Part shown: one piece after another, positions 1-47,970 of the stretch | How the letters are laid out: each line of letters opens with the position of its first letter | How positions within the stretch are numbered: the first letter of the stretch is position 1 | From: a virus | Virus record (IMG/VR): IMGVR_UViG_3300022723_000142 | Span: 1 to 53,674 of that record | DNA length: 53,674 nt | Direction: 5' to 3' (one strand) | Notes under the pieces: model-generated | What the model saw: only the letters and a program-made list of their open reading frames with translations | Databases searched by the model: none | Told to the model about the DNA's origin: nothing | Program-made: the position numbers and the translations under genes

Positions 1-127
1 GTATTATGCTACAATACATTTTAGTTACGAGAAACATTAGTGTAGGTAAACAACAATGGCTAAAGTCAATCTGACTAAGACATTGAGCGCTATCAAAGGA
101 CAGCTCTCAAACAGCGACAAAGACAAC
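1..127. repeat. Terminal direct repeat, left copy (identical to 53548..53674)
   Basis: Bases 1-127 recur exactly as the last 127 bases. The copy carries part of a promoter-like palindrome and the first 24 codons of ORF 56..1222. Confidence 0.95.
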
Positions 128-1301: not shown

Positions 1302-3998
1302 ATGGTAGCACATTTTAATTTTGATAACCTCAAATCATTTGTCGGCAGCGAGAGGTTTACCGAACAGGGCAGCATTGAAAATCAGAAAGTTTGGGCACGG
1401 GTGAGGGCGTCACTACTTAAACAATTTCCTAGGTTGAAACTCTCTCAAAACTGGGAAATCGATATAGAAACCTGGCAGAAATTCAGAAAGCTTGCGCCTG
1501 AAAATATAGACAACAATACGCTCAGGAATGTGCTGATTGTTCAGGGATACATTAGCCTGAAGCCTGCTCAAATTAAGAGCAATTGGAAAGATGACTTATA
1601 TGTTCCTGGCAATGGCCAGGGGTGGAGTCACATTCGAGTCATGTTTTACCGTGGCATTTTTGGCGATTGGCAAGAGTATGGTGACGGTCAGCCGTTCGCA
1701 CGGGTAAGAATACCAACCGCAGAAATAAAGGACGGTGGGCCTAAATATTTATCGCCTAAAAATAGCGGTGGGAACCAAATATTTTGGCCCTACAAACTGG
1801 GCCGATTTGCGGGTAAGTGTGAGCCCTGCAAAGTTTTTCAATCAAGCTCGGATGGTGATGATTTAGCCTATGCCTTCAAGGGATCATGGTTGCTTACTGA
1901 GGGTGAGGATAAAGCGGTCATCAGCAATCTTTGGGGATATCCCTGTATCGCCATTGGGGGCGTTGAGATGTGGAAGGCGAGTAAAAAAGGACCAATTAAC
2001 CCCTGGCTGATGTCCTTCGCCATGAATGCCGATAAGTTAACTGTCATCTATGATAGCGATGCCTTCCACAAGCCGGGCGTCGTGTCGGCGCAGTCGCGCC
2101 TCTGTCGAGAGATGTTCAACCATCTGGCCGAACTCGCCAAAATCTCAGACGGCAACGGCGACGCTGAGGGCTACTGTGAGGAGGTTTGGGGCCAGTGTAA
2201 AGTTGATGGCCTGGATAAATATGGAGCGGATATCGCTAGGGTCCACATCGCCTATGGGTACTTGCCGCCCAATCCTTACAGTAAAGGCTTAGACGATATT
2301 CTGGCGGTTCATCAGGGCGGCTGGCTTGCTACGATTTTGAGAGAGTCCCCACGGGCGTTTGAGATATCCGTGCAAGAACCGGACGACAGCAAGGATAAAG
2401 AGAACAAGATCAAAGCAAAATGGCTATTCACAGAACCTCGAAAGTTTGGGCTGACTAACTCAAAACTCAGCCCCGTGCAGAACAACTGTGTGAGCCTCAT
2501 TCGCGGGGCACTTTCGGCAGGCTGGCTCCAGCTCAACCACTGGCGGCCCGTGGGACAACGGCAGAGTGCCATGACCTATGCTTGGGAACGCACACAGCAA
2601 ATATGGCAGCTCTCCCCTTCTAAGAACGCCGCCAACTACGCGCTAAGGCAATGGTCTGAATTGTCCCCAGGGCGCAGCGCCATGGATGGGGTATCAGGTT
2701 TCGTCGATGCGGAAATGACCTGCTTTGAACACATCTCACCTAATGTTGGCAGCAATGGCCACCGGTTTATGGGGGTAGAGGGCGGCGACTTTGATGTCAA
2801 ATTGGGGCAATTGTTACCGATTCAGCCGAACCATCATTGCTTTAGCCGCATCGATATTAAGCCATTTGAGGGGCGACCTGATAAGTTTATGGACTTCTAC
2901 GCCCAACGGATGACAGGCGGCGAAGTTGACATGGAACGGTTTATGAGCTTTCTATCCATCTGCATTCGTGACCCTGGAAAAGTACATGTGTTGGGCTGGA
3001 TAACCGGGAAAGCGGGCACCGGCAAAAGTACGCTGATGAAGCTAGTCGCTAAAATTTTAGACGGCTGGGTGATGCCCGAAGATTTGAGAAACGTGTTTGA
3101 TTCCAACAACGCCAACAAAGGCTACTTGCCTTTGCACCTACTAGGAAAAATCCTTATATACGACGACGACTGGAAAGGGCTTCTCAGCACCAGCATGATT
3201 GGACACCTCAACAAAATTGCGACCAATACCGACATGCCCTTTCGCGGGATGAGCAAAGATCCCATCTTGACTAAACCAAACATGGGTGTACTCATGATCA
3301 CTAACGAAGACCTAATAATGAGCGCTGCTGACATTCAAGGGCTTCCCCGACGCATCCAGAAATGGGAATTCAAAGACGACAAATTCACCTCAGACGACTA
3401 CACCTTGGCCGAGTCACTACTCGAAGAAGAGAAAGGGAAAATTCTTTGGTACTTGCTCCACAAAGACCTTGAAGACTGCGCCCAAGAATTACAGGCATTC
3501 ACCGAAGCTGAAGAGGATTCGATAGAGCGTGGCTTTGCCGTTAATCACAGCGCTGAGTGGGTCGAGCGCCTGGAAGTCTGGGCACAGCAAAACCTATTCA
3601 GCCTGCAAGAGGGAAACCACAAAGGGCAAAGTACAGCCAATTATGCCAGCTTGAATGTTGATGGAGGCCCCCACGGACTAAGTCGGCTCAGCAAGGAATC
3701 AAACACCACGGAAGGCAGGCCAGCAGACTGGAACTATCTACCGGAAGTGTTTGGCGTGAAAGTGACCACTACAACGGTGGAAATCTACGCCAACTCCGCC
3801 AACTGGATTAGCGCAATCGCCAACTACGAGCGAGGCGAACACAATCCTAATGCCAGCCACCGTGGAGATAGAACCACCCTCAAGGCGCTTAAGAGCTTTA
3901 TCGACACCCAAAATCAAATCGGACTCAACCACCGCGCTAAGGCTCAATTCAACGGCGACAGAATAAGCGGCTGGAGCATTGAGTTTAGGAAAACCTAA
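1302..3998 (+). CDS. DNA primase/helicase (Toprim-like region plus P4/D5-type P-loop NTPase)
   Basis: 898 aa. Toprim-like 'LLTEGEDKAVISNLWGYPCIAIGGVEMW' and 'VIYDSDAF'. Walker A 'GKAGTGKST' and Walker B 'ILIYDDDW' in the C-terminal half. Confidence 0.6.
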   Translation: MVAHFNFDNLKSFVGSERFTEQGSIENQKVWARVRASLLKQFPRLKLSQNWEIDIETWQKFRKLAPENIDNNTLRNVLIVQGYISLKPAQIKSNWKDDLYVPGNGQGWSHIRVMFYRGIFGDWQEYGDGQPFARVRIPTAEIKDGGPKYLSPKNSGGNQIFWPYKLGRFAGKCEPCKVFQSSSDGDDLAYAFKGSWLLTEGEDKAVISNLWGYPCIAIGGVEMWKASKKGPINPWLMSFAMNADKLTVIYDSDAFHKPGVVSAQSRLCREMFNHLAELAKISDGNGDAEGYCEEVWGQCKVDGLDKYGADIARVHIAYGYLPPNPYSKGLDDILAVHQGGWLATILRESPRAFEISVQEPDDSKDKENKIKAKWLFTEPRKFGLTNSKLSPVQNNCVSLIRGALSAGWLQLNHWRPVGQRQSAMTYAWERTQQIWQLSPSKNAANYALRQWSELSPGRSAMDGVSGFVDAEMTCFEHISPNVGSNGHRFMGVEGGDFDVKLGQLLPIQPNHHCFSRIDIKPFEGRPDKFMDFYAQRMTGGEVDMERFMSFLSICIRDPGKVHVLGWITGKAGTGKSTLMKLVAKILDGWVMPEDLRNVFDSNNANKGYLPLHLLGKILIYDDDWKGLLSTSMIGHLNKIATNTDMPFRGMSKDPILTKPNMGVLMITNEDLIMSAADIQGLPRRIQKWEFKDDKFTSDDYTLAESLLEEEKGKILWYLLHKDLEDCAQELQAFTEAEEDSIERGFAVNHSAEWVERLEVWAQQNLFSLQEGNHKGQSTANYASLNVDGGPHGLSRLSKESNTTEGRPADWNYLPEVFGVKVTTTTVEIYANSANWISAIANYERGEHNPNASHRGDRTTLKALKSFIDTQNQIGLNHRAKAQFNGDRISGWSIEFRKT

Positions 3999-11623: not shown

Positions 11624-11734
11624 ATGGCAACTACAACCGAAGTCGGCACATCCTTAACAACTATCCTCACGATTCCTGCAAAGTTTTCCAGTCGCATCGG
11701 CATCCAGATTGAAATTGACTACTCCCCGCTCTAA
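11624..11734 (+). pseudogene. 5' fragment of a small virion-module ORF interrupted by the TnpB element
   Basis: The ATG lies 1 nt after the previous stop and encodes MATTTEVGTSLTTILTIPAKFSSRIGIQIE. The frame then runs into the element's hairpin and stops at 11732-11734. Confidence 0.5.
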
Positions 11735-11880
11735 AGAGACGGGGATTCCCCGGTCACCCGGAGAGGTTTCTGCTTCGTAGCACCTGCCTTTCGAGATTTA
11801 CTCTCTTCGGGTCTTACGGTCGCTCCACAGACTGAAACCGCTTGCCCAGCGGCCAAGACATTTATCGCAGCGTTGACATC
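11699..11880 (-). ncRNA. Predicted omega (right-end) guide RNA of the TnpB element
   Basis: Inferred from known TnpB biology: the omega RNA spans the 3' end of tnpB and the right end, then reads ~16 nt into the flank. The right-end hairpin (11723-11745) overlaps the tnpB stop. No direct evidence of transcription. Confidence 0.3.
11722..11749. repeat. Right-end subterminal hairpin motif of the TnpB element
   Basis: CTCCCCGCTCTAAAGAGACGGGGATTCC; stem TCCCCG/CGGGGA. Confidence 0.8.
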
Positions 11881-12927
11881 CCGATCATGGTGAAATCCAC
11901 ATTCAGGACAATCCCACTCTCGAATATTGAGCGGCAATCGTTGAACGACATGCCCACAGTTCGAGCAGCGCTTGGAGGAGGGAAACCAACGGTCAATTTT
12001 GACCAGCTCCCGACCATACCATTCGCTCTTATATTCAAGCTGCCTAACCAATTCACCCCAGCTAGCATCCGATATGGATTGAGCCAGGGAGTGATTTTTC
12101 ACCATATTCTTCACAGCCAAGTCTTCAACGGCAATCACTTGGTTGTCGCGCACCAATTGAGTTGTCAGCTTGTGAAGGAAATCTTTGCGAGTATCCGCAA
12201 TTTCGGCCTGCAACTTGGCTACTTTAAGCCGTGCTTTATGCCGATTGCTGGAACCTTTCAATTTGCGAGACAAAGCTTTCTGCGCTCGACGCAGACGCTT
12301 GTACTTTGCCTTAAACGTTTTGGGATTAGCGATCTTCTCACCTGTACTCAGCGTGACCAGACTGCTAACACCCAAGTCAATCCCGACCTTATTGCTGGTG
12401 CCGGGAAGATGGTTGATTTCAACATCAACCAGCAAACTCACAAACCACCTGCCGGACGGATCAAGCTTGACCGTCACCGTAGATGGTTCAGCACCTTGAG
12501 GCAACTGCTGACTCCAACGAATCGGCAACGCTTCAGAGCATTTAGCAAGGAACAGTTCACCGTCTTTCCAGCGGAAGGCAGACTTAGTGAACTCGGCACT
12601 GCCACCATTTCGCTTCTTTTTGAAGTTCGGATATTTAGTCCGACCAGCCCAAAAATTAGCAAACGCCTTTTGGAGGTGCCTCAAACCTTGCTGCAAGGGG
12701 ACGCAGCTAACTTCATTCAGGAAGTTCAGCTCATCTTCCTTCTTCCACTCAGTCAGCAATGCCGACGTTTCTTTGTACCCAATTCGCTCTTGCCTTTCAT
12801 ACCAGCCTTCAGTCCTTGCGGCCAAAGCACGATTGTATACAAGACGGGTACAGCCCAACGTTCGCCGCAGCAGGTTTTCCTGCTCGGCAGTTGGGTAAAA
12901 ACGATAGCGATAAGCACGTTGAGTCAT
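11731..12927 (-). CDS. tnpB: TnpB (IS605 OrfB-type RNA-guided endonuclease)
   Basis: 398 aa. N-terminal 'YRYRFYPTAEQENLLRRTLGCTRLVYNRAL'. RuvC-I 'VGIDLGVSS'. RuvC-II 'VIAVEDLAVKNM'. Zn ribbon 'CSNCGH...CPECGFHHDRDVNAAINV' carrying the RuvC-III Asp. Confidence 0.9.
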   Translation of the reverse strand: MTQRAYRYRFYPTAEQENLLRRTLGCTRLVYNRALAARTEGWYERQERIGYKETSALLTEWKKEDELNFLNEVSCVPLQQGLRHLQKAFANFWAGRTKYPNFKKKRNGGSAEFTKSAFRWKDGELFLAKCSEALPIRWSQQLPQGAEPSTVTVKLDPSGRWFVSLLVDVEINHLPGTSNKVGIDLGVSSLVTLSTGEKIANPKTFKAKYKRLRRAQKALSRKLKGSSNRHKARLKVAKLQAEIADTRKDFLHKLTTQLVRDNQVIAVEDLAVKNMVKNHSLAQSISDASWGELVRQLEYKSEWYGRELVKIDRWFPSSKRCSNCGHVVQRLPLNIREWDCPECGFHHDRDVNAAINVLAAGQAVSVCGATVRPEESKSRKAGATKQKPLRVTGESPSL

Positions 12928-16949: not shown

Positions 16950-17195
16950 CTAAAGGATGGCTATGCTGATATCAATTGCCGAGATAGCGCCGCTCAACTT
17001 CTCAGCAAACCAGAACATCGCGTAATACCAATTTGAATCAAGGACGGCTAACACGTGTGAGTGAGCATCCCCCTTCTCTGCCATGTCGGGCACGTGGAAA
17101 TGATCTATCACCTTGTCCATCTCTCGCCAAACGGGTTCAACGACTAACCGCCTTATCTCTACCTGCAAACTCGGGTCTGCTTTCCGTCTGCCCAT
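16950..17195 (-). CDS. Hypothetical protein, second gene of an RHH-led bicistron
   Basis: 81 aa. The ATG lies 10 nt after the RHH stop, with a GAGG SD in between. Confidence 0.5.
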   Translation of the reverse strand: MGRRKADPSLQVEIRRLVVEPVWREMDKVIDHFHVPDMAEKGDAHSHVLAVLDSNWYYAMFWFAEKLSGAISAIDISIAIL

Positions 17196-17205
17196 AGTGA
17201 TCGCC

Positions 17206-17367
17206 TCACTTGCTCTCAGCTTTTTTGAGATATGCCTCTAAAGCTTCCTCGCACAGTTCAGACATAGTGCGATCAGCCCTGACAGCAGCGATTTTCAGCC
17301 GTTGTTTTAGTTCGTCGCTGATTTCTACTTGTAGTCGTGCCACTGGCTCTTCTGGTACTGAACGCAT
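17206..17367 (-). CDS. Ribbon-helix-helix (CopG/Arc-like) DNA-binding protein
   Basis: A 53-aa ORF below the track's size cutoff: MRSVPEEPVARLQVEISDELKQRLKIAAVRADRTMSELCEEALEAYLKKAESK. It shows a beta-strand/helix/helix pattern typical of RHH antitoxins and repressors. Confidence 0.55.
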   Translation of the reverse strand: MRSVPEEPVARLQVEISDELKQRLKIAAVRADRTMSELCEEALEAYLKKAESK

Positions 17368-17554
17368 AAATAGTAGTCCTACTTCACGGTTTTGTGATCC
17401 TTTCAGCCTTATGTTAGCACTACTTCTAAAAATGTGTTACTACTAGCAGTAGTTAAGAACGGCATAGGCACTCGCTTGGTACCGATTGGAACGAATAAAG
17501 CTGTACCAAACCCGTGCCGCCCTAGTACCCACAACGTTTAGAGGCGTTTCAACC

Positions 17555-18061
17555 ATGCAAAGTCTGCACTCATTTTGTAAGCAACACGATCTACCGAAAA
17601 CCAGCGTTAAGCGGTTTCTGAATGATGAGGGATTCGATACCAGCAGCGGGTTAGGCCGTGACGCGATCGCCGCTGCCCTGGTGGAATTTAAGCCTGCTGG
17701 TAGTGCATCAAAGCCTGATGTGTTGCCGCCCCCTGGCTATGCTGATCCTTTCGCTGGTATTGGTGCCGGGGGTGCGATGGTGCCGACTGGCTACGCAGCA
17801 ACCGATCGGAGTTTAGCCGTGGCGATGTCAGAGCAACGGGTAAAGCAAATCTGCCAAAGTTCATCAATTAACCAACAGCAGACCGTGCAAGCCGCTATCG
17901 AGAGCGGTAATCAGTTGGGTACGCAGTTGGGTGCATTCCTGGGAGAGCGCACCATACAGGCTGCTGAAATGCAGCGCCAACAGATGATTGAGGAGTATTT
18001 GCAGGCGCAAGGGGTGAATGTTGCCCCAAAGCCCGCTGCCGACGATGGCAGCGCCGCCTGA
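17555..18061 (+). CDS. Hypothetical protein
   Basis: The ORF track starts at TTG 17486. ATG 17555 (MQSLHSFCKQHDLPKTSVKRFLND...) is the first ATG. Possible N-terminal HTH. Confidence 0.45.
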   Translation: MQSLHSFCKQHDLPKTSVKRFLNDEGFDTSSGLGRDAIAAALVEFKPAGSASKPDVLPPPGYADPFAGIGAGGAMVPTGYAATDRSLAVAMSEQRVKQICQSSSINQQQTVQAAIESGNQLGTQLGAFLGERTIQAAEMQRQQMIEEYLQAQGVNVAPKPAADDGSAA

Positions 18062-18132
18062 TGTTGGCGATCTCTGTTGCCCTGCTGATCATTTTGATTT
18101 GAACGAATGAAAACCTTTCCGGAGAACGACCG

Positions 18133-18393
18133 GTGACTATTGAACGCGAAAAGCAACTGCTTGAAGAAATTCTCGACTCTTACGGCCTTGAGCCAATCGT
18201 AAACGGCTTGATGGTGCGCTATTCCCTTGATGAGGTTCAGACTGCTTTATCAGGTACGCCGTGTCCCTGGGAAGTCGAAAGCGATCGCGACCTGTGCGAT
18301 TCAATTATCTCCGCCTGCCAGCAGCCAAATACGCCCGATACAGGATACATGCACCCAACGGAGGGTTGGGTATCAAGCAACTGGCCTAGCTAA
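18133..18393 (+). CDS. Hypothetical protein
   Basis: 86-aa ORF with a GTG start. Confidence 0.4.
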   Translation: MTIEREKQLLEEILDSYGLEPIVNGLMVRYSLDEVQTALSGTPCPWEVESDRDLCDSIISACQQPNTPDTGYMHPTEGWVSSNWPS

Positions 18394-18445
18394 TCCCCCT
18401 CAATCAGTTTCCACGCCTCTTGAGGGGGGCATCCACCGTTACCCA

Positions 18446-19165
18446 ATGGACACAGCCATTATGAACCGACTACACCTGTTACTTACTGCCGGGGCCGCGA
18501 TCTCCCTGGCCAGCTCATCCGCGATCGCCAATGAACCTCCCGTCATTGATGACCGCATTCAAATGATTTACGACAATATCGAAGCATACCAACAGCTTGC
18601 CCTCGATGAATATGGCGTACCTGCATGGCAAGCCTTACCGCCTGCCAGCCGCCCTGATCTGGCTTTCCGCCCTGCCTGCCGCCAGCTCACCTATGGACAG
18701 ATTGAGGGTGAGCACGTTTGGCACTGGGATGGTGAACTGATCTACCGCTCGCCTAAAATATTGGACGCTGCCGACGCGGGCCTTTGTAAACGGGGGGCAA
18801 CTCACGCCGTCGAAGTACCCAAAGTATTGACCGCCGATGTGTGGTCACAATTCGAGAGCGCGATCGCGGATACGGGGCGGGCCGTTGCCGTCATCCCTGA
18901 GAGGGAAGTGGTGGAAGTGGTGGACGAAACCCCAAAGCCACCACAAGAACCCGTCGCCACCACTGCCCAGCCATCGACAGAAAGCCGTCAATTATTTCCT
19001 TTTATTTGGGTTGGGTTGGGCGCTGTTGCCTTTGCTGTTTTTGGCTGTTCACTGCGCAAAGGCGATAACCGGAAACGCATTTCTAAGCCGGCAACAGCCA
19101 CCACAAAAACGCCACAAGATCCGCCGCAAGAACACACCGAAATTACATACGACTTCGAGTTATAG
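18446..19165 (+). CDS. Secreted/membrane-anchored protein (signal peptide plus C-terminal TM helix)
   Basis: MDTAIMNRLHLLLTAGAAISLASSSAIA|NEPP has an AXA-type signal peptide. C-terminal hydrophobic 'LFPFIWVGLGAVAFAVFGCSL'. The track ORF from 18227 overlaps the previous gene and is probably over-extended. Confidence 0.5.
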   Translation: MDTAIMNRLHLLLTAGAAISLASSSAIANEPPVIDDRIQMIYDNIEAYQQLALDEYGVPAWQALPPASRPDLAFRPACRQLTYGQIEGEHVWHWDGELIYRSPKILDAADAGLCKRGATHAVEVPKVLTADVWSQFESAIADTGRAVAVIPEREVVEVVDETPKPPQEPVATTAQPSTESRQLFPFIWVGLGAVAFAVFGCSLRKGDNRKRISKPATATTKTPQDPPQEHTEITYDFEL

Positions 19166-19268
19166 CGCTGTGAGTGAGTGTGAGCACTCACAGTGAGTGC
19201 TCACAGATGCGCTGTGAGTGCCTTGTGAGTCGGCAGTTATCGCCCTGTAACCCCTATTTGGTGAACCC

Positions 19269-19781
19269 ATGAGATTAGACTTTGACGACTTAACCAACAC
19301 GCAACAAACCGCCCCTAAAGAACTGCTTTCTGAAAAAATTATGGGGCAAGTAAAAATTGCTTTTTTCGGAGTAGTGACGCTGACCTGTTTTGGGCTGGGA
19401 TTGAGCCAAGCTTTCAGCCCAGCCGCTCGACAAATCCGCTCCGAGATTCAGCAGCAGGAACAGCAACAAACTCGAGAATTAACGCTGCAGCAGCAACAGC
19501 AGCGCCATGGCCAGCAAGCCCGGCAGATTGCCGAAGAGCGCTATCGCGAGGGGTGCTTACTGGTTTACACCCTCGATGCCGATGGGAATGTGATTTCCCT
19601 GTACGAAGGCATGGCGGTAGTGGACTCGACGACGAATCAGCCCTTAGCCGATGGCACTACGGTTTGTGACCCCAACGGTGCAACCGCAGTCCTTGAGAAC
19701 GGGGGCAAGGTTGGCGTGATTGCCGTGACGCCTGAAAGCGCCATGGTTCAGCAGTTAATTGCAGAGGGTAAACTCCGATGA
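19269..19781 (+). CDS. Single-pass membrane protein with Q-rich coiled coil
   Basis: TM 'VKIAFFGVVTLTCFGLGLSQAF' followed by 'QQQEQQQTRELTLQQQQQRHGQQ'. Confidence 0.55.
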   Translation: MRLDFDDLTNTQQTAPKELLSEKIMGQVKIAFFGVVTLTCFGLGLSQAFSPAARQIRSEIQQQEQQQTRELTLQQQQQRHGQQARQIAEERYREGCLLVYTLDADGNVISLYEGMAVVDSTTNQPLADGTTVCDPNGATAVLENGGKVGVIAVTPESAMVQQLIAEGKLR

Positions 19782-20470
19782 CGAAAGCTAAGTATGGCGA
19801 CGAGCAAACCTTGTATAACCCTGGCAACGGGGGCAAGTATCAAGCTCTATTCTGGTTTTTGCGGTTGGCGCTGCTGTTGGTTTTGTGTGGGGTAATTATC
19901 CGAAATATCGAACCCTATGCCCAATGGTCGCAGGCGTGGCTTGGTTCCAATATGACGGGCTGGTGGACGCTGATACCCGGTGCCACTTGGGTAGTGGACA
20001 AGGTTTATCGGTTCTTTGGTATCGTGCTTTGGGCATTATTTCAAACCTTGGAAACGATCCCGCTGTTCCTGCTGGGCACTCGTTTCGGGTTGGGGGTGCT
20101 GATTGCCAGCTATGAGCAGCAGGATCAGCAGCAACGCAAGATTGACACCTATCCCACCGATGACGCGGTGTTGACGTTCCTTAAAAAGAAATACAACGCG
20201 ATGGGCTTACGGGCTCTCGATTTCTTCCGCATGGCAGCGCCGTTTGCCTATGCAGTGGACCTAATTGTGTGTTGGCAAATCTTTCCGCCGCTAAAAGACG
20301 GATACACCTGGTCTCAAGTCGTCATGGGTTGGAATTGGGGCGGTATCGCGTGGAGCAACGTGGTGAGCCTGGTCGTTACCCTGCTCGCCTTTGAGATGGT
20401 CGTCCTGTGTTGGATGCGTACCTCTGAAATGATTTTCACGATTCGCCGGGGGATTAAATCAAATGCGTAG
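19778..20470 (+). CDS. Polytopic membrane protein
   Basis: 230 aa with several hydrophobic segments (e.g. 'ALFWFLRLALLLVLCGVII', 'FFGIVLWALFQTLETIPLFLLG', 'VVSLVVTLLAFEMVVLCW'). ATGA overlap with the upstream gene. Confidence 0.6.
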   Translation: MTKAKYGDEQTLYNPGNGGKYQALFWFLRLALLLVLCGVIIRNIEPYAQWSQAWLGSNMTGWWTLIPGATWVVDKVYRFFGIVLWALFQTLETIPLFLLGTRFGLGVLIASYEQQDQQQRKIDTYPTDDAVLTFLKKKYNAMGLRALDFFRMAAPFAYAVDLIVCWQIFPPLKDGYTWSQVVMGWNWGGIAWSNVVSLVVTLLAFEMVVLCWMRTSEMIFTIRRGIKSNA

Positions 20471-21953
20471 AGAAACTAAGCCAGAACTAAAGAAAGCCGC
20501 TATCGAAGCGGTACGGACGCAATCACACCTTGCCCTATCGGATCAGTACCTTGATACCTCTAAAACCTTGCCCCTATGGTTGGGAGCCGGGTTGGGGTCG
20601 CTGGTATTCATCGGGAATTTGGGCGCGATCGGGGTGGGTTTGTTGTTTGTGGGGGAGCGCTTATTCTCCTATCGTACCTACAGCCGCAAACGTGCCCAGC
20701 TCGCCACCACGCGCAGTGCTAGCGCCATTATTGAGCCGCTAAGGCGCAATCCCGTGGAGTACTCCTATGCGAAAGCCATCATGCAAGCCCGTGGGGATTT
20801 GGCGCTGCTGATACCGGATGACGATGAAGATGACGAAACTGATTCCCCTACGGTGGACGTGGCCAGCTCCACTGTTAGCGAGTCGGGCCTCTTGCGTGAC
20901 GTGCCGATGACGTGGGTACCTAAAGCGCGGGGGCAAGGTGAACACCTGGCAGTCATCGGCCTGTCGGGAGCATCTAAAACCACCACGCTGCTAAAGGCTT
21001 GTGAGGGCATCAATACGCCGATCATCTACGTCACCATTAAGGATGCAGACACCTCGCCGCCTAACTGGGAAGCTTACAAACTGAGCAAAACAGCCGGGGC
21101 ATACTACCTTGCCCAGCTATGCCACATCTGCGATCGCCTCGAGGATATGCTCACGGGGGGCATAGAGCATCACTTGATTGTGGATGAGGCATTGCAGCAG
21201 ATTGATCAAGCCAAGGACTCCGAGAAACTAGCAGAGGGCAAGCCTTACAAGGGCACTGCCAGCCGGTTTGAATCGCTCATAAAGTGCTATATCCGCTCGG
21301 GGCGGAGTGATGGGCAGCTTATTGGTTTGGTGAGTCAATCTCCCAATGGGACGGATTTGTTTGGCAGCGCTAAGACCATGCAAGGGTTAAAGCTCATTCT
21401 GTGCGCTGGTGAATATAGCTCAAATAAATTCCAATTCTTTACCGCATGGGCTAAGCAATTATTTGGCGGTCTGGTGAATGCCGATATTGAATCAGAGCTT
21501 AGCCAGGTTAAGGCTGGTTTCTGGCATCTGACAAATACGGGTGATGGGTTGGCATTGAACGAAACCATTCAATCCGACGTGGTGATGGTGGCTTGTGCTG
21601 AATGCCCAGCCGCGCATATAGGGGACGAGGTACCCGATAAACCTGTCGGGCCTTCCCCCATGAGGCAGAAAGCCCAGCGCTTTATCAATGAGAATGAGCA
21701 ACCCAGCAAAGCCGCTTGGGAGCAGGGGCAAGAACGGGGCGCGATCGCCTATGCCTACTGCGCAGTGCTGCAAGATGCCCTTGCGGAAGACGTGCCCTTA
21801 GCCGGGTTTGGCGGCAACTCTAAATTTGCGTGGCGGTTGCATAAGGCTGGGGTGATTGAGAACCGTAGCCGTGAGCAGTGGTGGCCACACCTCGAAGCGC
21901 TAATCGATAAAGGCTATCTCAATGCCGACTCAGATAAATTGTGGATTGATTAG
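20463..21953 (+). CDS. Membrane-anchored P-loop NTPase (FtsK/HerA/T4CP-like architecture)
   Basis: N-terminal hydrophobic 'LPLWLGAGLGSLVFIGNLGAIGVGLLFVG', Walker A-like 'VIGLSGASKTTT' and Walker B 'HHLIVDEA'. Overlaps the upstream gene by 8 nt. Confidence 0.55.
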   Translation: MRRETKPELKKAAIEAVRTQSHLALSDQYLDTSKTLPLWLGAGLGSLVFIGNLGAIGVGLLFVGERLFSYRTYSRKRAQLATTRSASAIIEPLRRNPVEYSYAKAIMQARGDLALLIPDDDEDDETDSPTVDVASSTVSESGLLRDVPMTWVPKARGQGEHLAVIGLSGASKTTTLLKACEGINTPIIYVTIKDADTSPPNWEAYKLSKTAGAYYLAQLCHICDRLEDMLTGGIEHHLIVDEALQQIDQAKDSEKLAEGKPYKGTASRFESLIKCYIRSGRSDGQLIGLVSQSPNGTDLFGSAKTMQGLKLILCAGEYSSNKFQFFTAWAKQLFGGLVNADIESELSQVKAGFWHLTNTGDGLALNETIQSDVVMVACAECPAAHIGDEVPDKPVGPSPMRQKAQRFINENEQPSKAAWEQGQERGAIAYAYCAVLQDALAEDVPLAGFGGNSKFAWRLHKAGVIENRSREQWWPHLEALIDKGYLNADSDKLWID

Positions 21954-21988
21954 CCGATACAATCGTGGCTGATCTGGATTGCTATGAG

Positions 21989-22017
21989 CTACCCCGCCTT
22001 TTGAGAAGGCGGGGTAG
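21989..22017. terminator. Bidirectional hairpin terminator between convergent genes
   Basis: CTACCCCGCCTT (21989-22000), loop TTGAGA, AAGGCGGGGTAG, located between the stops at 21953 (+) and 22023 (-). Confidence 0.65.
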
Positions 22018-22022
22018 TTCAT

Positions 22023-24524
22023 CTAAACCCAGCCATGACGACGATTAAGTAAGTCAGCATCATTTCGAGTGCGATGGTATTCGAGGCTGCACTTGCAATT
22101 CACAAAACATATCCGAGTTCCCGGCATTGACATTTGCCCCCTCAGTACAATCCCCTTGCCAGTTTCAGCGACACATTCTGAGCAGTGTTCGGCAACGCCC
22201 AACCTATTGCTGACATAGGGAAACTCAGCCACGGGATGGGCGGCATCCTGCGCCTGGTTATATAGCAGCTCGGCATCATGCACATAGAGTTTAGCCCGCG
22301 CCGAGATCGCCCCGACCGACATCACACCGCTCAATACTTCGGCACTGAACCGCCGCAGGTAGTCGTACTGCCTTAATAGTTCATCCTTTACGGTTTCTCG
22401 ATAGCGCGGCTCAATATTGCGTCGGTTGCCAAATCCGAACACGAAGAACAATGCTGCTGCCCCTGCAATGATTTCGGCTAGCCGTTCTTCCCATTGCGCC
22501 GCATCGATATCGCCCGACTCTAGCAGGGATGTTAGAGCGTCAATCTGCCCCTCATAACTATCGAGTTCAGCGGTGAGCAGTTCTAGAATCTCATCAGGCG
22601 TCACCCGGTCATCGCCATCGCGGTATTGGCCTGCATCTTCATCCCATTGCCACCCTTGTTCATCGGCCAGCGATCGCACCTCAGCCCAATCAATATCGCT
22701 CAACTCTTGAAAGTAGGCAACGCTGGGCAATCGAACGAAGTCCGGCTGAAAAAGGTCAGTATCAAACTTTTTTGCATGTTCCTCTCCCCCGTCCGCTCTT
22801 GTTGATTCAGCAGTTTTGTAATTCGCAAGCTCTTTTAATGTTAGCTCTCGCACTTCGCCCATAAACTCTTTGGGCATAGCTGAAAGATAAATGGCCTTAG
22901 CTTCATCAATTGATGAAGCACCAATAACCATCTTTTCTTCGTCGAATTTACCATTGATAACTTGGTCAATAGCAAATACTTTTTTGCTGGCCAGGTCAGT
23001 GCCCACATAAACATCAACAGCCATCCCGTCAGAGCCTTTTGTCTTTTGGAAATGCCCATAGCCAGCTTGCAAAACCTTGCCATGCCGCTTATCAAACGGA
23101 AAATACTGAAGTCCAACCCTAAAACCGTTCCAGTCAATGACCCTTTTTGTTGGGGTTGCTTCATCATTCCTATCGTTAGGCGCTGCTGTAGCCACTTCGA
23201 TTACATTCTCAATGTCTTGGCCAGTCGAGATCGCCATGCGCACCTCATCAGCGCTCACGGCCCCCGACTCAATCAGCAACTTAAATGTCTCGGCTTGCCC
23301 CTTCTTGTTTTCCTGCTTCTCCTGTGGCGTTTCGGTGTAGATACTGGGATATTCAATTTCCCAGTTACTGGGCACTGTGCCCAACGCCTCAAAGATGGCG
23401 TGGAATACGATGCGGTGGTTGCTCATAAAATCCTGAGCTTGCCAAGCCTGCACTTGTTCGGCATATGCCCGCGTTTCAGCGCCGCCGCTATCCGCCAACG
23501 CCGATTTACCCACAGTCCCCCAAATCTTATAGAAAGGTAACCCGGTGGCCGCCGTCAGCTCATCTACAATCGACTGAAAGTTCTCCTTGACGCCAGTGAA
23601 GGAGCGCTCTTGAAAGTCGCTGTTGCTGGTCTGGGCATCTTGCACCAACACCTTATGCAGACTCATCATCTGGGCGATCGAGTTCATCATATTGGTGAGT
23701 GCCGTTTCACCGCCTGGGCCAGCCAGAACATCTACCAGACCATCGATAGAAACCTTAATCAGCGAATAGGTTTGTAGCCCTTTTGAGATAGCATCCTTGG
23801 CCATATAGTGTCTATTGAAAATCTCAAATATTCCCTGAATGACGGAGTCGTGGCCTGCATCGCCTTCTAACTGTTGATCATAGGGGTGAATCTCAGCACC
23901 ATCAAACACCAGCACTCGGCTATGGTGGATGCGCTGGTTAAACCTGAAATCCTGGTTAGCATTGTCTCTGCCCTCCGTGCGGGCGATGCGGTAAAACTCC
24001 GGGTCGCTAGGATTGATAGTTGTGAAATCTGGTCGCAGCTGGTAACGATCCAGCACTGAAAAACCCTCAAAACTTCGCACCTTTCGCAGCGGCTTTTCTG
24101 GATTCTCAGAACCATTCACCCTCAGCACAATATATGCGCGTCCAAACAGGTCGGCATATTGCTTCGCCTTACGGAATGCGTCATGGCCTGACATTTGCCG
24201 ACTATAAGGGGATGCATTCTGAGAGCCCTGGTTATAGATGGCGATCGCTGCTGCTGCGTCCTGTTCGTCTCCCCCCTCATGGATGACCAACTCAACCCCT
24301 TTACGTGTCATGTCGTTAGCGGGGGCATCGATGATGCGGCGAATTAGCCACGAGCCACGGTATAGCGATCGCAACTCCACTTCAGACAGCAGCCGCACCT
24401 GCCCAACCTGAGTTGAGGTGAACGGGTCTCGGCCATGAACCCCCATACCCGTTGCCGTATTTCCTAGCAGCGAGTTACTGAGGGCGTTGGCTAGATTATC
24501 AAACCGCAGGTCAGTGTCAATCAT
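22023..24524 (-). CDS. Portal protein candidate with long C-terminal extension (possible head-morphogenesis fusion)
   Basis: First large gene downstream of terL on the same strand. The track ORF reaches 24623, but the first 33 codons run into the repeat module, so ATG 24524 (MIDTDLRFDNLANAL...) is the more plausible start. The C-terminus ends in a Cys cluster 'CSECVAETGKG...CFVNCKCSLEYH'. Confidence 0.55.
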   Translation of the reverse strand: MIDTDLRFDNLANALSNSLLGNTATGMGVHGRDPFTSTQVGQVRLLSEVELRSLYRGSWLIRRIIDAPANDMTRKGVELVIHEGGDEQDAAAAIAIYNQGSQNASPYSRQMSGHDAFRKAKQYADLFGRAYIVLRVNGSENPEKPLRKVRSFEGFSVLDRYQLRPDFTTINPSDPEFYRIARTEGRDNANQDFRFNQRIHHSRVLVFDGAEIHPYDQQLEGDAGHDSVIQGIFEIFNRHYMAKDAISKGLQTYSLIKVSIDGLVDVLAGPGGETALTNMMNSIAQMMSLHKVLVQDAQTSNSDFQERSFTGVKENFQSIVDELTAATGLPFYKIWGTVGKSALADSGGAETRAYAEQVQAWQAQDFMSNHRIVFHAIFEALGTVPSNWEIEYPSIYTETPQEKQENKKGQAETFKLLIESGAVSADEVRMAISTGQDIENVIEVATAAPNDRNDEATPTKRVIDWNGFRVGLQYFPFDKRHGKVLQAGYGHFQKTKGSDGMAVDVYVGTDLASKKVFAIDQVINGKFDEEKMVIGASSIDEAKAIYLSAMPKEFMGEVRELTLKELANYKTAESTRADGGEEHAKKFDTDLFQPDFVRLPSVAYFQELSDIDWAEVRSLADEQGWQWDEDAGQYRDGDDRVTPDEILELLTAELDSYEGQIDALTSLLESGDIDAAQWEERLAEIIAGAAALFFVFGFGNRRNIEPRYRETVKDELLRQYDYLRRFSAEVLSGVMSVGAISARAKLYVHDAELLYNQAQDAAHPVAEFPYVSNRLGVAEHCSECVAETGKGIVLRGQMSMPGTRICFVNCKCSLEYHRTRNDADLLNRRHGWV

Positions 24525-24611
24525 GGAAAGTAACAGGAAGGTTCCCTCTAGTTTACTAAATACAGAAACACTACCTATACAACAGGCAAACTTGATTAGA
24601 GACCCTGTTTT

Positions 24612-25041
24612 ATACGGTGGCACAAAACTTTAGGGGTGGCACACTTCAAAAATGGCAAGTGTGCCACCCCTAAGCCCTTGATATACAAGGATTCTTTAGG
24701 GGGGTGTCACACATGGCACACTTCATCTGGGTCGGAGCGTGCAGAGTAAATTTTCTATGACGTGTAATGCTGTGCCAGTTGCCATTCTCTCTTTTAGAGA
24801 ATTTTGTCTAGTAAATTAAATCAGAAAGAAGTGTGCCATGTGTGACACCCTAAGCAAAACTCTTGATATGTATAGCTTTGAGGGTGGCACACTTCGAAAA
24901 TAGCAAGTGTGCCACCCCCCTGAAGTGTGACACTAAAATGGTATATTTAGATACTTTTCTCAGCTTAGCTTCATAAAAGGGCGTTGTGACAATTTGGAGC
25001 TTAGGAGAAATGTATTATGGCACAATACATGTGCCAGTTGC
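24612..25041. repeat. Non-coding structured module B: inverted homologue of module A, located between terL and the portal gene
   Basis: Hairpins at 24633-24670 and 24882-24918. Perfect 23-bp inverted repeat 24702-24724/24828-24850 around a 103-bp AT-rich core. About 10 TGGCACA/TGTGCCA boxes. The reverse complement aligns with 4150-4565 at roughly 80-90% identity by eye. Confidence 0.9.
25009..25030 (+). promoter_or_regulatory. TGTATTATG..ATACA palindromic motif (copy 2)
   Basis: AATGTATT-ATGGCAC-AATACAT. Related to the copies at 53543 and 51683 and contains a TGnCACAAT extended -10-like string. Confidence 0.35.
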
Positions 25042-25129: not shown

Positions 25130-27775
25130 TTAACTGTACAGGGCATTTAGAGTGTCGACGGCTGTCCCTTCAATTAGGTCATTGATCGCAAATACCAGTG
25201 CATCAAGGCGGTTTGGGCTAGGCATTCCCGGCTGCCATGTACACATCTCACGCTCCAAATCTACAAACGTCCCAACGTGATGAACTTTCCCCGCCTCATA
25301 TTGTTGGTGCGCTGGTTCGGCCCGAATAAGTTTGCCGCGACTGGATGTAGATTCTTTCACTGCAACAGTAGGGTCAATCAGCAGGACAGTCGCTTTCACC
25401 ATGTCGCCGCCAAAGTTGCGTTCAGCTACCAGATAATTAGCTTTCAAATCATGGTATCGGTCGATCACTGCCTGGAATCTTTCATTTGGGGTTCCCTTCA
25501 AACTGTCATCGTTGAGCACATACAGATGGCCGCTCGCTGCCTTACCCACCGCAACGTTACCGGCCTCTGTCGTAGAACTGCCCGAAGGATCAACGCCGAT
25601 CACAATCCTGATCAGCTCAGGGGTGCTGGTGACACGATACGGAGTGATGTCTCTGTCTTTGTCCCATAGCCCTCCGTCCGGTTCGTCTTCATGCTGTGAT
25701 TCGGTAAGGAATGTCCTCAGCCCCCACTTATTAATCTGTCGTTCAATGACTTCGAGGTTTTGTCCTTCTGGCCATGTGGGTTTGCCGCCACTGACGCGGT
25801 AAAGGTTTTGTTTTTTCTGATCGCTCCAATACTGCTCATATTCCAGGTCTATAGCAGCGGGCTCTTCAGTAACGGTTGCCCCTAGCAATATTTCCGCCCG
25901 ACCATCAGCAACTTGAGCGATCGCGCTGTCTTTGTGAATTTTGTTTTGCACAAAAAGCACGGTGGCATCGGTGGACTCAGCAGCGAGGATGTCACGGGAT
26001 ATTGTCTTGAGCTTCTTGGCAGTGGCTTCTGGCGTGTCGTGGGTGCCGTCGATATCATCCAATATTATGAGGTCGGGACGCTGTTCCTGAATACGAGCTC
26101 CACGAATCCGGCTATTCAGTCCCACACCAACGACGCCGAACCCATTCACCGTTTGCAACCGTTGGGCTGTCCAGTTGAGGGAAGCTGAGTATTTGTTGAG
26201 GGCACGGGGGACACCCATCTGTTCCAGCAATGCCGCGATCGCCTGCACATGCAAGTCGGCTTGATCTTGAGTGCCACAGACATACAGCGCCAATCGACGT
26301 TTCAACGAGCAAGCAAAGTACGCACAGAGCTGTTCTGCGATGGTGCTGTTGTGAGTTACCAAAAGATTTGTAATTAAGTTTTGATTACGCTCAACTTGAA
26401 CATCATAAGTTTCTCTGTCTCCCACGTCCTCAATTTTGACAACTTTGTCCCAAAAAACATCGGCTTTTTCTAGCCAAACCCATTGCGGCAAAGGCTCGTA
26501 AGTGATTGCTTTTTGAAGCTTTCCCCTGGTAATGTCGTAATCCTTCCCCAGTCGAGGCCCACCAGCGTTCCGGATTTTTCGATTAGTTCCTTTTGGCAGA
26601 CCTAACCCCACTTGACGCGGATAAGTGTCAAAAAGACTGTATCTGTGCTTTTCGCAAACCTTTTGCAGTTTTTCTTTTTTTAGAATTAGCGGCATCATAT
26701 CTCTGCATCGACTTAAGCAGTTCTGATCGATCATTAGTCTCCAAGCGCCTGCATAGTCATTAGGAGCTTCGATTGTTGAACTAATGACGCCAACTTGAGC
26801 CAGCAAAATTTCAAGGTCTTTCACTAACGCCTGATTAGCTAGAGCAATCCCCATCTTGCGCTCTTCTACCCAGCCATCGGTATCAAACATAGCTGCTAAA
26901 AAAATCCACTTTTGACGCTCTGGCAACTGAAAGACAAACTTAGGCACTCTCTTTTGAGTAGCTAATTTGTCTTTAATCCCTACGTTTTTAATCCACTGAC
27001 GCCCAAAACCTTTTAAGTTGTAGCCATATATCCCACAACGCTTAACTTCCATGCCCATTGCGTTAGCACAATAAATAAAATCCCTGACTATACACTCATC
27101 TGCATTTGTAAAACTACAATTATTAGACGTTGTAGAACCCTCGGCAATCATATAAGCCAGTAACTTAACCTCTTCATCTGGCCTGTCGATTACAGCAGAA
27201 ACGCTTTTTAAGTGGCGAGGTGAGGCGATCCTATCTTGCAGCGTCAATTCCCCTGCCAGCTTCCATCCGTCAAAAGTCCGCACTTTGTGGTCAGAAGTTA
27301 AGACAACTGATTTCCCTGTTGCCGTAGTCACCTGAATGCATGGCTTGATGCCGCTAAAAACTTTAGCGATGATGGAGTCGCCTTCGATCTGCCCAGACGC
27401 CTCATTCCAAGAAAGTATTTTTTCCCCTGGCTTGATTTCAGAAATAGGAGCTAACGACCCATCGAGTAAAGACAACATGGTATTTGCATCCAAGCATTTT
27501 GCACCGCCCCTACCCCATATCTCAACACGTGGCGTTGCGGGCTGTCCTGATTCGATAGCCTGGCCCCATTCCCAAACAGCCCTATGGCGATCTCCGTTAG
27601 GGATGAGGGTACCAGGTAGAGTGCGGGATAGGAATGCTTGTGGGGTTTCGGTGGGAGATGGGATGAGGTGAGGTGGGAGTGTGGGTCTTTCGTTTGTCGG
27701 CTTTACCCCTAACTCCTCAGCTAAACCATCCCACCAACTGTCTAAGCGCTCTGTTGTTGCTCTTTTTCTTGCCAC
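25130..27775 (-). CDS. terL: Terminase large subunit interrupted by an intein
   Basis: 881 aa. P-loop-like 'WGRGGAK|C...HN|ST' is split by the intein. After removing 383 aa, the 498-aa extein is typical in size. Downstream 'LIILDDIDG' resembles Walker B. Located after terS and before the portal gene. Confidence 0.75.
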   Translation of the reverse strand: MARKRATTERLDSWWDGLAEELGVKPTNERPTLPPHLIPSPTETPQAFLSRTLPGTLIPNGDRHRAVWEWGQAIESGQPATPRVEIWGRGGAKCLDANTMLSLLDGSLAPISEIKPGEKILSWNEASGQIEGDSIIAKVFSGIKPCIQVTTATGKSVVLTSDHKVRTFDGWKLAGELTLQDRIASPRHLKSVSAVIDRPDEEVKLLAYMIAEGSTTSNNCSFTNADECIVRDFIYCANAMGMEVKRCGIYGYNLKGFGRQWIKNVGIKDKLATQKRVPKFVFQLPERQKWIFLAAMFDTDGWVEERKMGIALANQALVKDLEILLAQVGVISSTIEAPNDYAGAWRLMIDQNCLSRCRDMMPLILKKEKLQKVCEKHRYSLFDTYPRQVGLGLPKGTNRKIRNAGGPRLGKDYDITRGKLQKAITYEPLPQWVWLEKADVFWDKVVKIEDVGDRETYDVQVERNQNLITNLLVTHNSTIAEQLCAYFACSLKRRLALYVCGTQDQADLHVQAIAALLEQMGVPRALNKYSASLNWTAQRLQTVNGFGVVGVGLNSRIRGARIQEQRPDLIILDDIDGTHDTPEATAKKLKTISRDILAAESTDATVLFVQNKIHKDSAIAQVADGRAEILLGATVTEEPAAIDLEYEQYWSDQKKQNLYRVSGGKPTWPEGQNLEVIERQINKWGLRTFLTESQHEDEPDGGLWDKDRDITPYRVTSTPELIRIVIGVDPSGSSTTEAGNVAVGKAASGHLYVLNDDSLKGTPNERFQAVIDRYHDLKANYLVAERNFGGDMVKATVLLIDPTVAVKESTSSRGKLIRAEPAHQQYEAGKVHHVGTFVDLEREMCTWQPGMPSPNRLDALVFAINDLIEGTAVDTLNALYS
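26348..27496 (-). mobile_element. Intein (383 aa) with LAGLIDADG homing-endonuclease domain
   Basis: Starts at Cys94 'CLDANTMLSL' and has block B 'VLTSDHKV'. LAGLIDADG motifs 'LLAYMIAEGS' and 'FLAAMFDTDGWV'. Ends 'LLVTHN', followed by the +1 Ser. Confidence 0.85.
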
Positions 27776-47585: not shown

Positions 47586-47970
47586 TTGTTAAAACATCGC
47601 GTTTTAACAAATGGAACGCGATCGCGTGCGCCGCCTTGCCTTGCCCAATAAACCCGTGTTGCAAAACTCGTTTTTCAAACCTGCTACCGGCGCATCCTTC
47701 AAGATATGGCAGTTGGGCATATTCATTGGCAAACCAGCGAACCCACTCGGTTGTCTGCCGAATGCCAGTACCAGTGTCGATATGCAGAATATGAGTGATC
47801 GGGATGTTCAGCGCCTTGGCGGCGTAATATGTGGCGCGGCTGTCGTCTCCGCCACTCATGGCCAGCACCACTGCATAGGGCTGAGGATATTGGGCGATCG
47901 CCTGCTGCCATACTTGGCGACTTGATTCTAATGTCGTCGCTGCCCAGTCTTGATATTCGGATAAGTTCAT
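47524..47970 (-). pseudogene. PAPS-reductase/PP-loop family protein, C-terminally truncated
   Basis: PP-loop 'VVLAMSGGDDSRA'. The 148-aa ORF ends where the TnpB remnant begins (62-nt overlap), short of the usual family length. Confidence 0.5.

Follow-up and report, generated by a model that had tools for sequence, protein, structure and literature searches.

A candidate TraB/clt/Spd-like DNA translocation module, built around a membrane-anchored FtsK-HerA-type ATPase, in a tailed cyanophage genome

The window analyzed here is the whole of a 53,674-nt viral contig (IMG/VR record IMGVR_UViG_3300022723_000142). It is a tailed cyanophage genome that carries, between a gene for a 997-aa protein and the portal gene, a block of four plus-strand genes designated C, D, E, and F. 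F is an ATPase of the FtsK-HerA type, and the spacer between C and D contains a phased array of short repeats whose class covaries with two residues in the C-terminal domain of F. We consider it possible, at a probability of roughly 40%, that the block is a self-contained DNA translocation module, similar to the TraB/clt/Spd system of Streptomyces, which moves its carrier element between joined cells. A sequence-only reading of the contig had proposed several roles for these genes: a DNA or protein translocation device, superinfection exclusion, an unconventional lysis or envelope-remodeling system, or a phage-borne defense system. Of these, DNA translocation is favored by the new evidence, whereas defense lost ground for lack of any PADLOC match and lysis because the module also occurs outside phages.

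The four open reading frames (ORFs) are present where the sequence-only reading had placed them. C occupies positions 18461..19165 (alternative start at 18446; 234 aa), D 19269..19781 (170 aa), E 19778..20470 (230 aa), and F 20463..21953 (496 aa), all on the plus strand, and a second, independent gene call for this contig (L011) agrees, giving proteins of 234, 170, 230, and 496 aa. The described stop/start overlaps are also real, at 4 nt between D and E and 8 nt between E and F, and the same overlaps recur in other loci. As proteins, C, D, E, and F are kept in order in at least 12 other loci, with identities of 33 to 45% for C, 52 to 85% for D, 58 to 91% for E, and 67 to 91% for F. Because both the proteins and the gene order are conserved, C to F are more than chance ORFs. 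When all ORFs were clustered across loci, only these four were universal members, and their co-occurrence was strict; the portal gene and the 997-aa neighbor had no counterpart in other loci. The four proteins had been described as being no standard virion or lysis components, and scans of Pfam, PHROGs, and NCBIfam indeed found no virion, lysis, or replication homology. These scans, together with PADLOC, returned noise only for C, D, E, and F. There was likewise no significant match for the block proteins among PDB sequences, no Pfam match for 29 pooled C/D/E orthologues, and no match for the block by blastn or for F by tblastn in the INPHARED phage and PLSDB plasmid collections. Scanning positions 17000..22200 against Rfam gave nothing meaningful. 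The earlier range of 18446 to 21953 covers the four genes, but the unit is larger, since it also includes a divergent ribbon-helix-helix (RHH) gene, two small genes, and the C-D spacer array. On the downstream side, a stem-loop with a perfect 10-bp stem (21989..22017) lies between the convergent F and portal genes and is a likely transcript end. Its earlier assignment as a bidirectional terminator is plausible, although the hairpin lacks a T-run and was not among the calls of the terminator scan.

Further analysis of F showed a membrane hairpin (residues 38 to 65), an acidic linker, an ATPase core (residues ~150 to 380), and a C-terminal helical domain (residues 395 to 496). In a simple hydropathy scan, which bore out the hydrophobic segments described earlier for the block, residues 38 to 65 form a single 28-residue Gly-rich hydrophobic stretch with positive charges on both sides, and this fits a helical hairpin. 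The landmarks of the core are H161, the Walker A (166 to 173) and Walker B (238 to 243) motifs, R278/R281, and SQSPN (291 to 295). The predicted Walker A GLSGASKT and Walker B LIVDEA sequences are present and invariant across the family. Residues G166, S168, G169, K172, T173, D241, and E242 are invariant in 19 F sequences, and K172, D241, and E242 are at least 90% conserved in a broad 31-sequence set; the only fully invariant residue of the broad F family is Q292. The core and C terminus were modeled well (predicted local distance difference test [pLDDT] score, ~80 to 92) by AlphaFold2 from the 19-sequence alignment. When this model was searched against PDB with Foldseek, the first match was TcpA of pCW3 (6o1w; E value, 5e-5), followed by TrwK/VirB4, EccC, and the FtsK motor (2ius and 6t8g). 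All of the top 13 matches (E ≤ 1e-3) were TcpA, TrwK/VirB4, EccC, or FtsK, with RecA, KaiC, and Rho ranking lower. The TM-scores were low (0.26 to 0.39), the full-length model being used.

Sequence comparisons point the same way through the distant members of the family. An exhaustive HMMER search of 1.84 billion representative proteins recovered 42 relatives of F. Of 31 distant relatives scanned against Pfam, four matched FtsK_SpoIIIE (best E value, 1.5e-6), one matched TrwB_AAD_bind, and one matched DUF87. The window F itself did not reach the FtsK_SpoIIIE threshold and had no match to the DUF87, TrwB, or type IV coupling protein (T4CP) families; its only Pfam match was AAA_22 at an E value of 0.051. 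A profile of the broad F family matches EccC in PDB (E value, 0.0027) at the FtsK-type PH..G.TGSGK context, and the invariant H161 of the F family is the counterpart of the FtsK "PH" histidine. In hhalign, the F family aligned with Tra of the Streptomyces plasmid pIJ101 at an E value of 1.6e-4 and a probability of 51%, over 136 motif-bearing columns only. This alignment is collinear through Walker A, Walker B, and the R..G-hhhhh-[ST]Q.P stretch, where F, from the arginine-finger residues R278/R281 through the sensor motif in LVSQSPN, aligns with RMARAAEIILIWATQKPT of Tra. A narrow profile (A1) gave an E value of 0.038 and a probability of 1.4% against the same protein, and phmmer and the narrow profile matched the Walker A motif of ABC ATPases alone among PDB sequences. 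By these comparisons, F is an FtsK-HerA-type ATPase that joins the superfamily through a sequence-isolated branch, and orthology to a named family is not demonstrable. The fold search, the Pfam matches of the distant relatives, and the collinearity with pIJ101 Tra thus uphold the earlier view of F as a transmembrane (TM)-anchored P-loop ATPase of the FtsK/HerA or coupling-protein kind. F is probably ring forming. More specific assignments fared less well. No relaxase or VirB4-type type IV secretion system (T4SS) partner of a type IV coupling protein was found in any locus. As for EccC/EssC, F has a single ATPase domain, its partners have no Pfam match, and there is no WXG100 gene in the listed flanks. 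Finally, F is not the packaging motor of the phage, because the phage has its own canonical large terminase, whose gene adjoins the portal gene.

The second element of the module is the 103-bp C-D spacer (19166..19268), a phased array of about seven CTGTGAGTG-type units that we treat as a cis element. The units occur in both orientations at near-helical spacing. Counted from the D start codon, direct units are found at about -99, -89, -76, -55, and -44 (and also at -33 in some loci) and inverted units at -78 and -65, and a perfect 13-bp palindrome covers 19179..19205. The spacings are 10 to 13 bp or double that, and the geometry is identical across the equivalent spacers of 11 loci. The motif is almost confined to the C-D spacer in every locus; in L001, for instance, CTGTGAC/GTCACAG occurs six times in the spacer and not once elsewhere in 21.5 kb. 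Depending on the locus, the unit is either GTGAG or GTGAC, and all copies within one locus switch together. In a distant subtype (L002 and L015), the arrays differ (CGGTAAT/CCGTTAA; TATAACCCC) and lie directly upstream of a fully overlapping C-D-E-F block. There, two short-repeat clusters (L002, 8330..8449; L015, ~1480..1633) flank a conserved central piece (TTAATTTTTCGCCTCAC / TTAATTTTCCTGCCTCGC), a layout reminiscent of plasmid parC, where iterons lie on both sides of a promoter. The last array unit of the window reads TTGTGA and is followed 17 nt later by TGTAAC, a pair that could be a weak promoter. The spacer was rejected as an intrinsic terminator, as it has no T-run and its direct units outnumber the inverted ones.

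The repeat class was then compared with the residues of the four proteins by means of class-partitioning columns, that is, alignment columns in which the two repeat classes share no residue. In a first set of seven loci, the C-terminal domain of F contained three such columns and the rest of F none. With five further loci, positions 454 and 457 held in all, so that the association extends to 12 of 12 loci: K..W occurs with GTGAG arrays and R..K/S with GTGAC arrays. Position 424 of F and most of the initially covarying columns of C, D, and E dropped out once the new loci were added. In the final set, the partitioning columns numbered 2 of 279 variable columns in F, 2 of 183 in C, 0 of 155 in E, and 0 of 129 in D. 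Several features of this pattern were apparent. First, the two residues in F are three apart on one helix (residues 454 to 461). Second, one of the two columns in C, residue 72, is inside the invariant AFRPxC motif, and the other is in a poorly aligned tail. Third, close relatives can be of opposite class, as are L010 and L001 (88% F identity) or the window and L018 compared to L019 (86 to 87%). Finally, L019 is a mosaic: the backbone of its D, E, and F is closest to the window, but its array class, its SRFVKRLY helix, and the initial half of its C match L001. The specificity-linked pieces therefore co-segregate though they are not contiguous. The covariation owes its weight mainly to the two columns being three residues apart and having survived the test with new loci, and it is suggestive of the F C-terminal domain reading the array. 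Two other candidate readers were rejected. The RHH protein encoded upstream of the block does not qualify as the main reader, because RHH types differ among loci, L001 has none, and the residues at its beta-strand positions are not correlated with GTGAG or GTGAC arrays; the helix-turn-helix (HTH) of the upstream gene A is not conserved across loci, and gene A likewise does not track the repeat class.

The C-terminal domain of F (residues 395 to 496; 21645..21950, plus strand) is, from the AlphaFold2 model and the covariation, a putative DNA-recognition domain. Modeled alone (pLDDT, 87.5), it is helical and ends in a beta-hairpin. Its nearest PDB entries in a fold search were the winged-helix proteins MarR, PadR, SelB-WH, IclR, Fur, and CRP, none of them significant (best E value, 0.39). 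The distant subtype, which has different arrays, also has a different F C-terminal domain.

The three partner proteins all have TM segments. C has an acidic domain, two invariant Cys residues, the AFRPxC motif, and a C-terminal TM anchor followed by a basic stretch. The signal peptide and C-terminal anchor claimed for C were both seen in the window copy, where the hydropathy scan showed a Sec-like N-terminal leader, but L002 is the only other locus with the leader; the remaining orthologues begin downstream of it, at M-x-Q-P-I-D-P-R, and are preceded by in-frame stop codons. We favor an outward-facing domain with a cytoplasmic tail, because this topology agrees with the positive-inside rule, with the Cys pair, and with the leader seen in two of the copies. 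The otherwise poorly conserved cytoplasmic tail ends in an invariant YDFxL (19144..19165), which resembles a docking peptide whose partner might be the ATPase. D is a bitopic protein: a short tail precedes its single TM helix (residues ~27 to 49), and beyond the helix lie a coiled coil rich in Gln and then a C-terminal domain that is rich in beta structure and contains two Cys residues. Its weak match to SieB (E value, 0.013; 15.6 bits) is below the Pfam cutoff of 26. E is polytopic, with at least three hydrophobic stretches, and no other partner of the ATPase is as well conserved. The invariant motifs of E are RNIxPY, QxLExxP, and AYxVDxxxWxxxPPxKxG. C, D, and E had no similarity to the Spd proteins SpdA, SpdB, and KilB, and a comparison of E with SpdB and KilB found no homology.

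Upstream of the block, the window has a divergent gene for a 53-aa RHH protein (17206..17367, minus strand; Pfam 56B_RHH at an E value of 7e-7, plus RHH_10, RHH_1, and RHH_5), which is a candidate repressor. A divergent RHH gene and an HTH-type gene are found upstream of the block in most related loci. An RHH_5 gene is at the same relative position in L003, L005, L007, L008, L010, and L027; the RHH types vary among loci, and L001 is without an RHH gene. An 81-aa ORF without a Pfam match (16950..17195, minus strand) lies directly downstream of the RHH gene, with which it could form an antitoxin-toxin-like pair. Two small plus-strand genes follow. Gene A (17555..18061 in the gene call, with the ORF opening at TTG 17486; 168 aa) is a variable accessory gene with an N-terminal HTH/SAP-like segment, a weak SAP_new25 match, and a Q-rich C terminus; its N-terminal 40 to 54 residues are conserved with 188-aa proteins of L005, L007, and L008. 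Gene B (18133..18393; 86 aa) is in both the ORF list and the gene call and had no tblastn match in the related loci.

A mechanism can be proposed from these features. F would be a membrane-anchored FtsK-like ATPase, probably a ring, whose C-terminal domain would recognize the phased array as a clt-like site, and the motor would then pump double-stranded DNA through the cytoplasmic membrane. The cotranslated D and E, together with C, would form or anchor the envelope part of the conduit, and the divergent RHH gene would keep a potentially toxic operon repressed. The most likely use would be to move the carrier element, here a phage genome, into neighboring trichome cells across the septum without a relaxase or T4SS; we favor transfer within trichomes because every identified host is a filamentous cyanobacterium. 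Four parts of this scheme are inferred: binding of the array by F, DNA as the substrate, the roles given to C, D, and E, and transfer from cell to cell. Literature searches turned up nothing relevant on FtsK-like transfer in cyanobacteria or on phage spread through septal junctions, and no experimental precedent in cyanobacteria.

The closest known parallel is TraB/clt/Spd of pSVH1, pIJ101, and other plasmids and actinomycete integrative and conjugative elements. The transfer of double-stranded DNA by one FtsK-like motor without a relaxase has been described as peculiar to the Actinomycetales (PMC3429521). Streptomyces TraB is an FtsK-like membrane motor whose C terminus recognizes 8-bp repeats at a single cis locus, clt (PMC4447253, PMC3429521). 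The spd genes, three to seven in number and diverse, are in operons with overlapping stop/start codons and are accompanied by a divergent kil/kor repressor (PMC4447253, PMC3429521); in pIJ101, korA faces tra-spdA-spdB-kilB, again with overlapping codons (PMC4447253; pIJ101 map). The cyanobacterial module shares several of these traits: a membrane FtsK-like motor with a separate C-terminal domain, for which DNA recognition is putative here; one cis locus, on the element itself, that consists of short (~8-bp) repeats; membrane partners that are small and diverse in sequence and whose genes belong to a translationally coupled operon; a small, divergently encoded repressor, here a candidate; no relaxase or T4SS; multicellular filamentous hosts; and components that are occasionally found on phages. 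The last trait has a precedent in the SpdB2 homologues of actinophages, which have been proposed to aid the spread of phage DNA (PMC4447253). Other traits set the two systems apart. The proteins here form a new sequence family, the genes run in the opposite order, with the motor last, and the repressor candidate is an RHH rather than a GntR protein. In the array, direct units are combined with inverted ones, and its position is intergenic, upstream of the three coupled genes. Furthermore, the cyanobacterial hosts are Gram-negative, the module in the window is carried by a complete tailed phage, and its transfer function is a proposed one.

Three other FtsK-like systems share parts of this architecture. 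TcpA of Clostridium perfringens pCW3 combines N-terminal TM helices with a single FtsK-like motor and is used for DNA transfer. Its partners are a relaxase and a complete T4SS-like Tcp apparatus (VirB4-like and VirB6-like proteins and peptidoglycan hydrolases), whereas no relaxase or T4SS-like partners were found with the module here. We know of no sequence-specific C-terminal reader or repeat array for TcpA. FtsK/SpoIIIE has the membrane motor, the motor fold, and the PH..G.TGSGK and [ST]QxP motifs in common with F, and its C-terminal winged-helix gamma domain reads 8-bp KOPS/SRS motifs; the C-terminal domain of F is winged-helix-like, with reading putative. Unlike FtsK/SpoIIIE, F has a two-helix hairpin instead of four TM helices and a short acidic linker, and its module has one recognition locus, in which the repeats are clustered rather than being polar motifs spread over the genome, resides on mobile elements, and includes dedicated membrane partners. 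EccC/EssC of type VII secretion resembles F in its N-terminal TM anchor and FtsK-like fold, and EccC is the best PDB sequence match of the family profile. However, F has one ATPase domain compared to three, there are no WXG substrates or EccB/D/E homologues, and a DNA-reader-like C-terminal domain and an array are present here.

A distant homologue of F was also found in another phage of a filamentous cyanobacterium. It is gp177 (712 aa; annotated as hypothetical) of the Nodularia siphophage vB_NspS-kac65v151 (NC_048756, 87791..89929; L024, 37791..39929). It is the best viral structural match of F (E value, 1.4e-9) and also matches the family profile (E value, 1.6e-6). Like F, gp177 shows hydrophobic segments in its N-terminal part together with a P-loop and an LDSQSPS motif, and its C terminus is helical; unlike F, it has a longer N-terminal region. 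No comparable array or C-D-E homologues were found upstream of gp177, and nearby there is only the unrelated multi-TM gp182.

Several points weigh against the proposed translocation module. First, the covariation rests on about three class switches, two of them perhaps linked by recombination, and a rough estimate gives about one chance-partitioning column in F. C, in which residue 72 partitions by class, could be the reader or a co-reader. Second, the fold search with the F C-terminal domain gave no significant match, and the covarying residues are on the helix that precedes the usual winged-helix recognition helix. Third, the array is directly upstream of coupled genes in both subtypes, which would fit a plain operator or promoter, and a transcript of it would form a strong hairpin (z = -2.8; no Rfam family). 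Because of this position and this hairpin, the operator and RNA-structure readings of the array are kept alive. Fourth, the homology to TraB is at the superfamily level only, and C, D, and E are unlike Spd proteins, although Spd proteins are not conserved among Streptomyces plasmids either (PMC4447253). Finally, no component was identified for crossing the recipient membrane or the septal peptidoglycan, the carrier resembles an ordinary complete tailed phage that does not obviously need a transfer function, and DNA binding and DNA transport rest on inference.

The families of the module are tiny and co-distributed: F has about 21 clusters; E has 20, with the same distribution as F; and C, which is present in all loci, has 37, all unnamed. 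Some homologues of C lie on contigs of 43 to 58 kb. Only 5 of 185,579 species-representative genomes have F, all of them Leptolyngbya/Nodosilinea-type cyanobacteria, and the hosts identified are all filamentous cyanobacteria (Leptolyngbya, Nodosilinea, Phormidium, and Tildeniella). One IMG/VR viral contig carries the distant subtype. Elsewhere, the module was found in chromosomal, plasmid-like, and integrative contexts without phage structural genes, and no virion gene accompanies it in the nonphage loci. The flanking genes vary: ParA and RH3, or ParG and Tn3 (L005 and L004); a tyrosine integrase plus a large DUF3854 protein (L002, L007, and L008); a PriCT_2 primase (L026); transposases (L003 and L001, with AAA_21 in L001); a Cap4 nuclease (L010); a DEAD/ResIII helicase (L029); and two-partner secretion genes (L009 and L019). 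No relaxase, VirB4, or VirD4 family member was detected in the scanned window genes or in the flanks of 12 loci. The module is horizontally mobile between different elements. In L002, the module-adjacent protein has DUF3854, and the large proteins of L007 (10864..14109) and L008 (3..1955) cluster with L002 1..2399; a direct Pfam scan of the large L007 protein gave no match. The window phage and the L002, L007, and L008 carriers may share a replication-module type.

Among the alternatives, an unlikely one is membrane-tethered segregation or septum clearance, in which F would bind the array as a centromere-like site and draw the element to the division septum or keep it there, so that both daughters inherit it, with no transfer. 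An FtsK-like motor would suit such a task, and an iteron array upstream of an operon is the classic position of a plasmid centromere. ParA/ParG occur in some carriers only, so the module could substitute for them, and the carriers are self-replicating with their own primases. Segregation needs no periplasm-facing partners, however, yet C and D point to an envelope-spanning assembly, and a single recognition locus differs from the dispersed polar sites of FtsK. Export of a protein or other non-DNA cargo, as by single-motor relatives of EccC/EssC, with the array serving as an operator or promoter for the F C-terminal domain or for RHH repression, is similarly unlikely. It would account for EccC being among the best fold and sequence matches and for the array being immediately upstream of the coupled genes in both subtypes, with a possible weak promoter in the window, and the YDFxL tail of C could dock to the motor. 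What it leaves unexplained is the presence of one ATPase domain, not three, with no WXG-like or other conserved candidate substrate nearby, and the confinement of the module to mobile DNA. Moreover, a DNA-reading domain has no known precedent on a secretion motor, yet it is a defining feature of TraB and FtsK.

A role as a superinfection exclusion or anti-phage/anti-plasmid defense moron, in which a membrane complex blocks or expels incoming DNA, appears improbable. The location in variable regions, with defense-like neighbors in some loci (Cap4 in L010, AAA_21 in L001, and the DEAD/ResIII helicase in L029), the nonessential-looking insertion between phage structural and packaging genes, and the weak SieB match of D are in its favor. 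However, that match is far below the Pfam cutoff, PADLOC-DB 2.0 gave zero matches at an E value of ≤1 for all four proteins, and a private, covarying array on the element's own DNA would be unexplained. A lysis or envelope-remodeling cassette, with E holin-like, D i-spanin-like, C as the envelope partner, and the ATPase as a regulator, can practically be dismissed: the topology of D is i-spanin-like and no lysis cassette was identified elsewhere among the scanned window genes, but the block occurs in nonphage contexts, has no adjacent endolysin and no PHROG lysis match, and a motor of the FtsK kind that carries a DNA-reading domain is not known from any lysis system.

The carrier in the window is well defined. 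An exact 127-bp direct repeat is found at its two ends (1..127 and 53548..53674), and the window is the whole contig; therefore, the genome is complete, circularly assembled (or terminally redundant), and ~53.5 kb long. It encodes phage structural and packaging proteins (head protease, major capsid protein, portal, large terminase, and tape measure protein) and replication proteins (DNA polymerase, DUF3854/DUF5906 primase, helicase, and 5'-3' exonuclease). The cyanobacterial HIP1 octamer palindrome GCGATCGC occurs 50 times in the window compared to 1.1 expected, a density that reads as a strong host-type signature and is unusual for a phage genome. The gene content and the HIP1 count therefore identify the window as the genome of a tailed cyanophage, and the C-D-E-F block is part of it.

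Some other genes of this phage are also unusual. As had been noted, the portal gene (22023..24623, minus strand; 866 aa) adjoins the block just past the hairpin. It matches PF06381 and is an unusually large composite with an InPase-like domain (PF18823; E value, 4e-20) and an additional match of its C-terminal region to phrog_24776. The large terminase (25130..27775, minus strand; 881 aa) has its terminase match restricted to residues ~477 to 874, and its N-terminal half has weak helicase-like PHROG matches. On the other side of the block, the 997-aa gene had no matches in the scans, and its earlier label as a fiber gene is tentative. A gene for an IS605-family OrfB/TnpB protein (Cas12f1-like_TNB; 11731..12927, minus strand) lies between the head/neck genes and the 997-aa gene, and a relative of it was found in L001. 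The primase gene (1302..3998, plus strand) combines DUF3854 and DUF5906. Two plus-strand genes encode an FHA-domain protein (44459..45208) and an EAL-domain protein (45648..46853; cyclic di-GMP phosphodiesterase; E value, 1.3e-36), which could serve in the takeover of host signaling. In the replication-gene region, there are also a transposase-like ORF (phrog_506; 46992..47585, minus strand) and a PAPS-reductase-like ORF (phrog_424; 47524..47970, minus strand).

If the translocation reading is correct, the module would be a cyanobacterial look-alike of the actinomycete system, formed from an unrecognized protein family with its own covarying array and carried by a phage as well as by plasmid-like and integrative elements. 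A bolder version, which we regard as doubtful, is that a tailed phage pushes its array-marked genome through septa and so spreads along a filament, or between attached filaments, without making or releasing virions; the module would then be an independent cyanobacterial counterpart of relaxase-free FtsK-type conjugation, shared among phages, plasmids, and integrative elements. The pairing of the K/W and R/K-S versions of the F helix with GTGAG and GTGAC arrays, respectively, is a testable candidate specificity code. With only four genes, the block would be an attractive genetic tool for filamentous cyanobacteria, which are hard to transform. More generally, it would represent a native, very small gene transfer machine for cyanobacteria and possibly a means of virion-independent phage spread in a multicellular host, and it would suggest that the FtsK-type solution arises wherever cells stay joined by septa.

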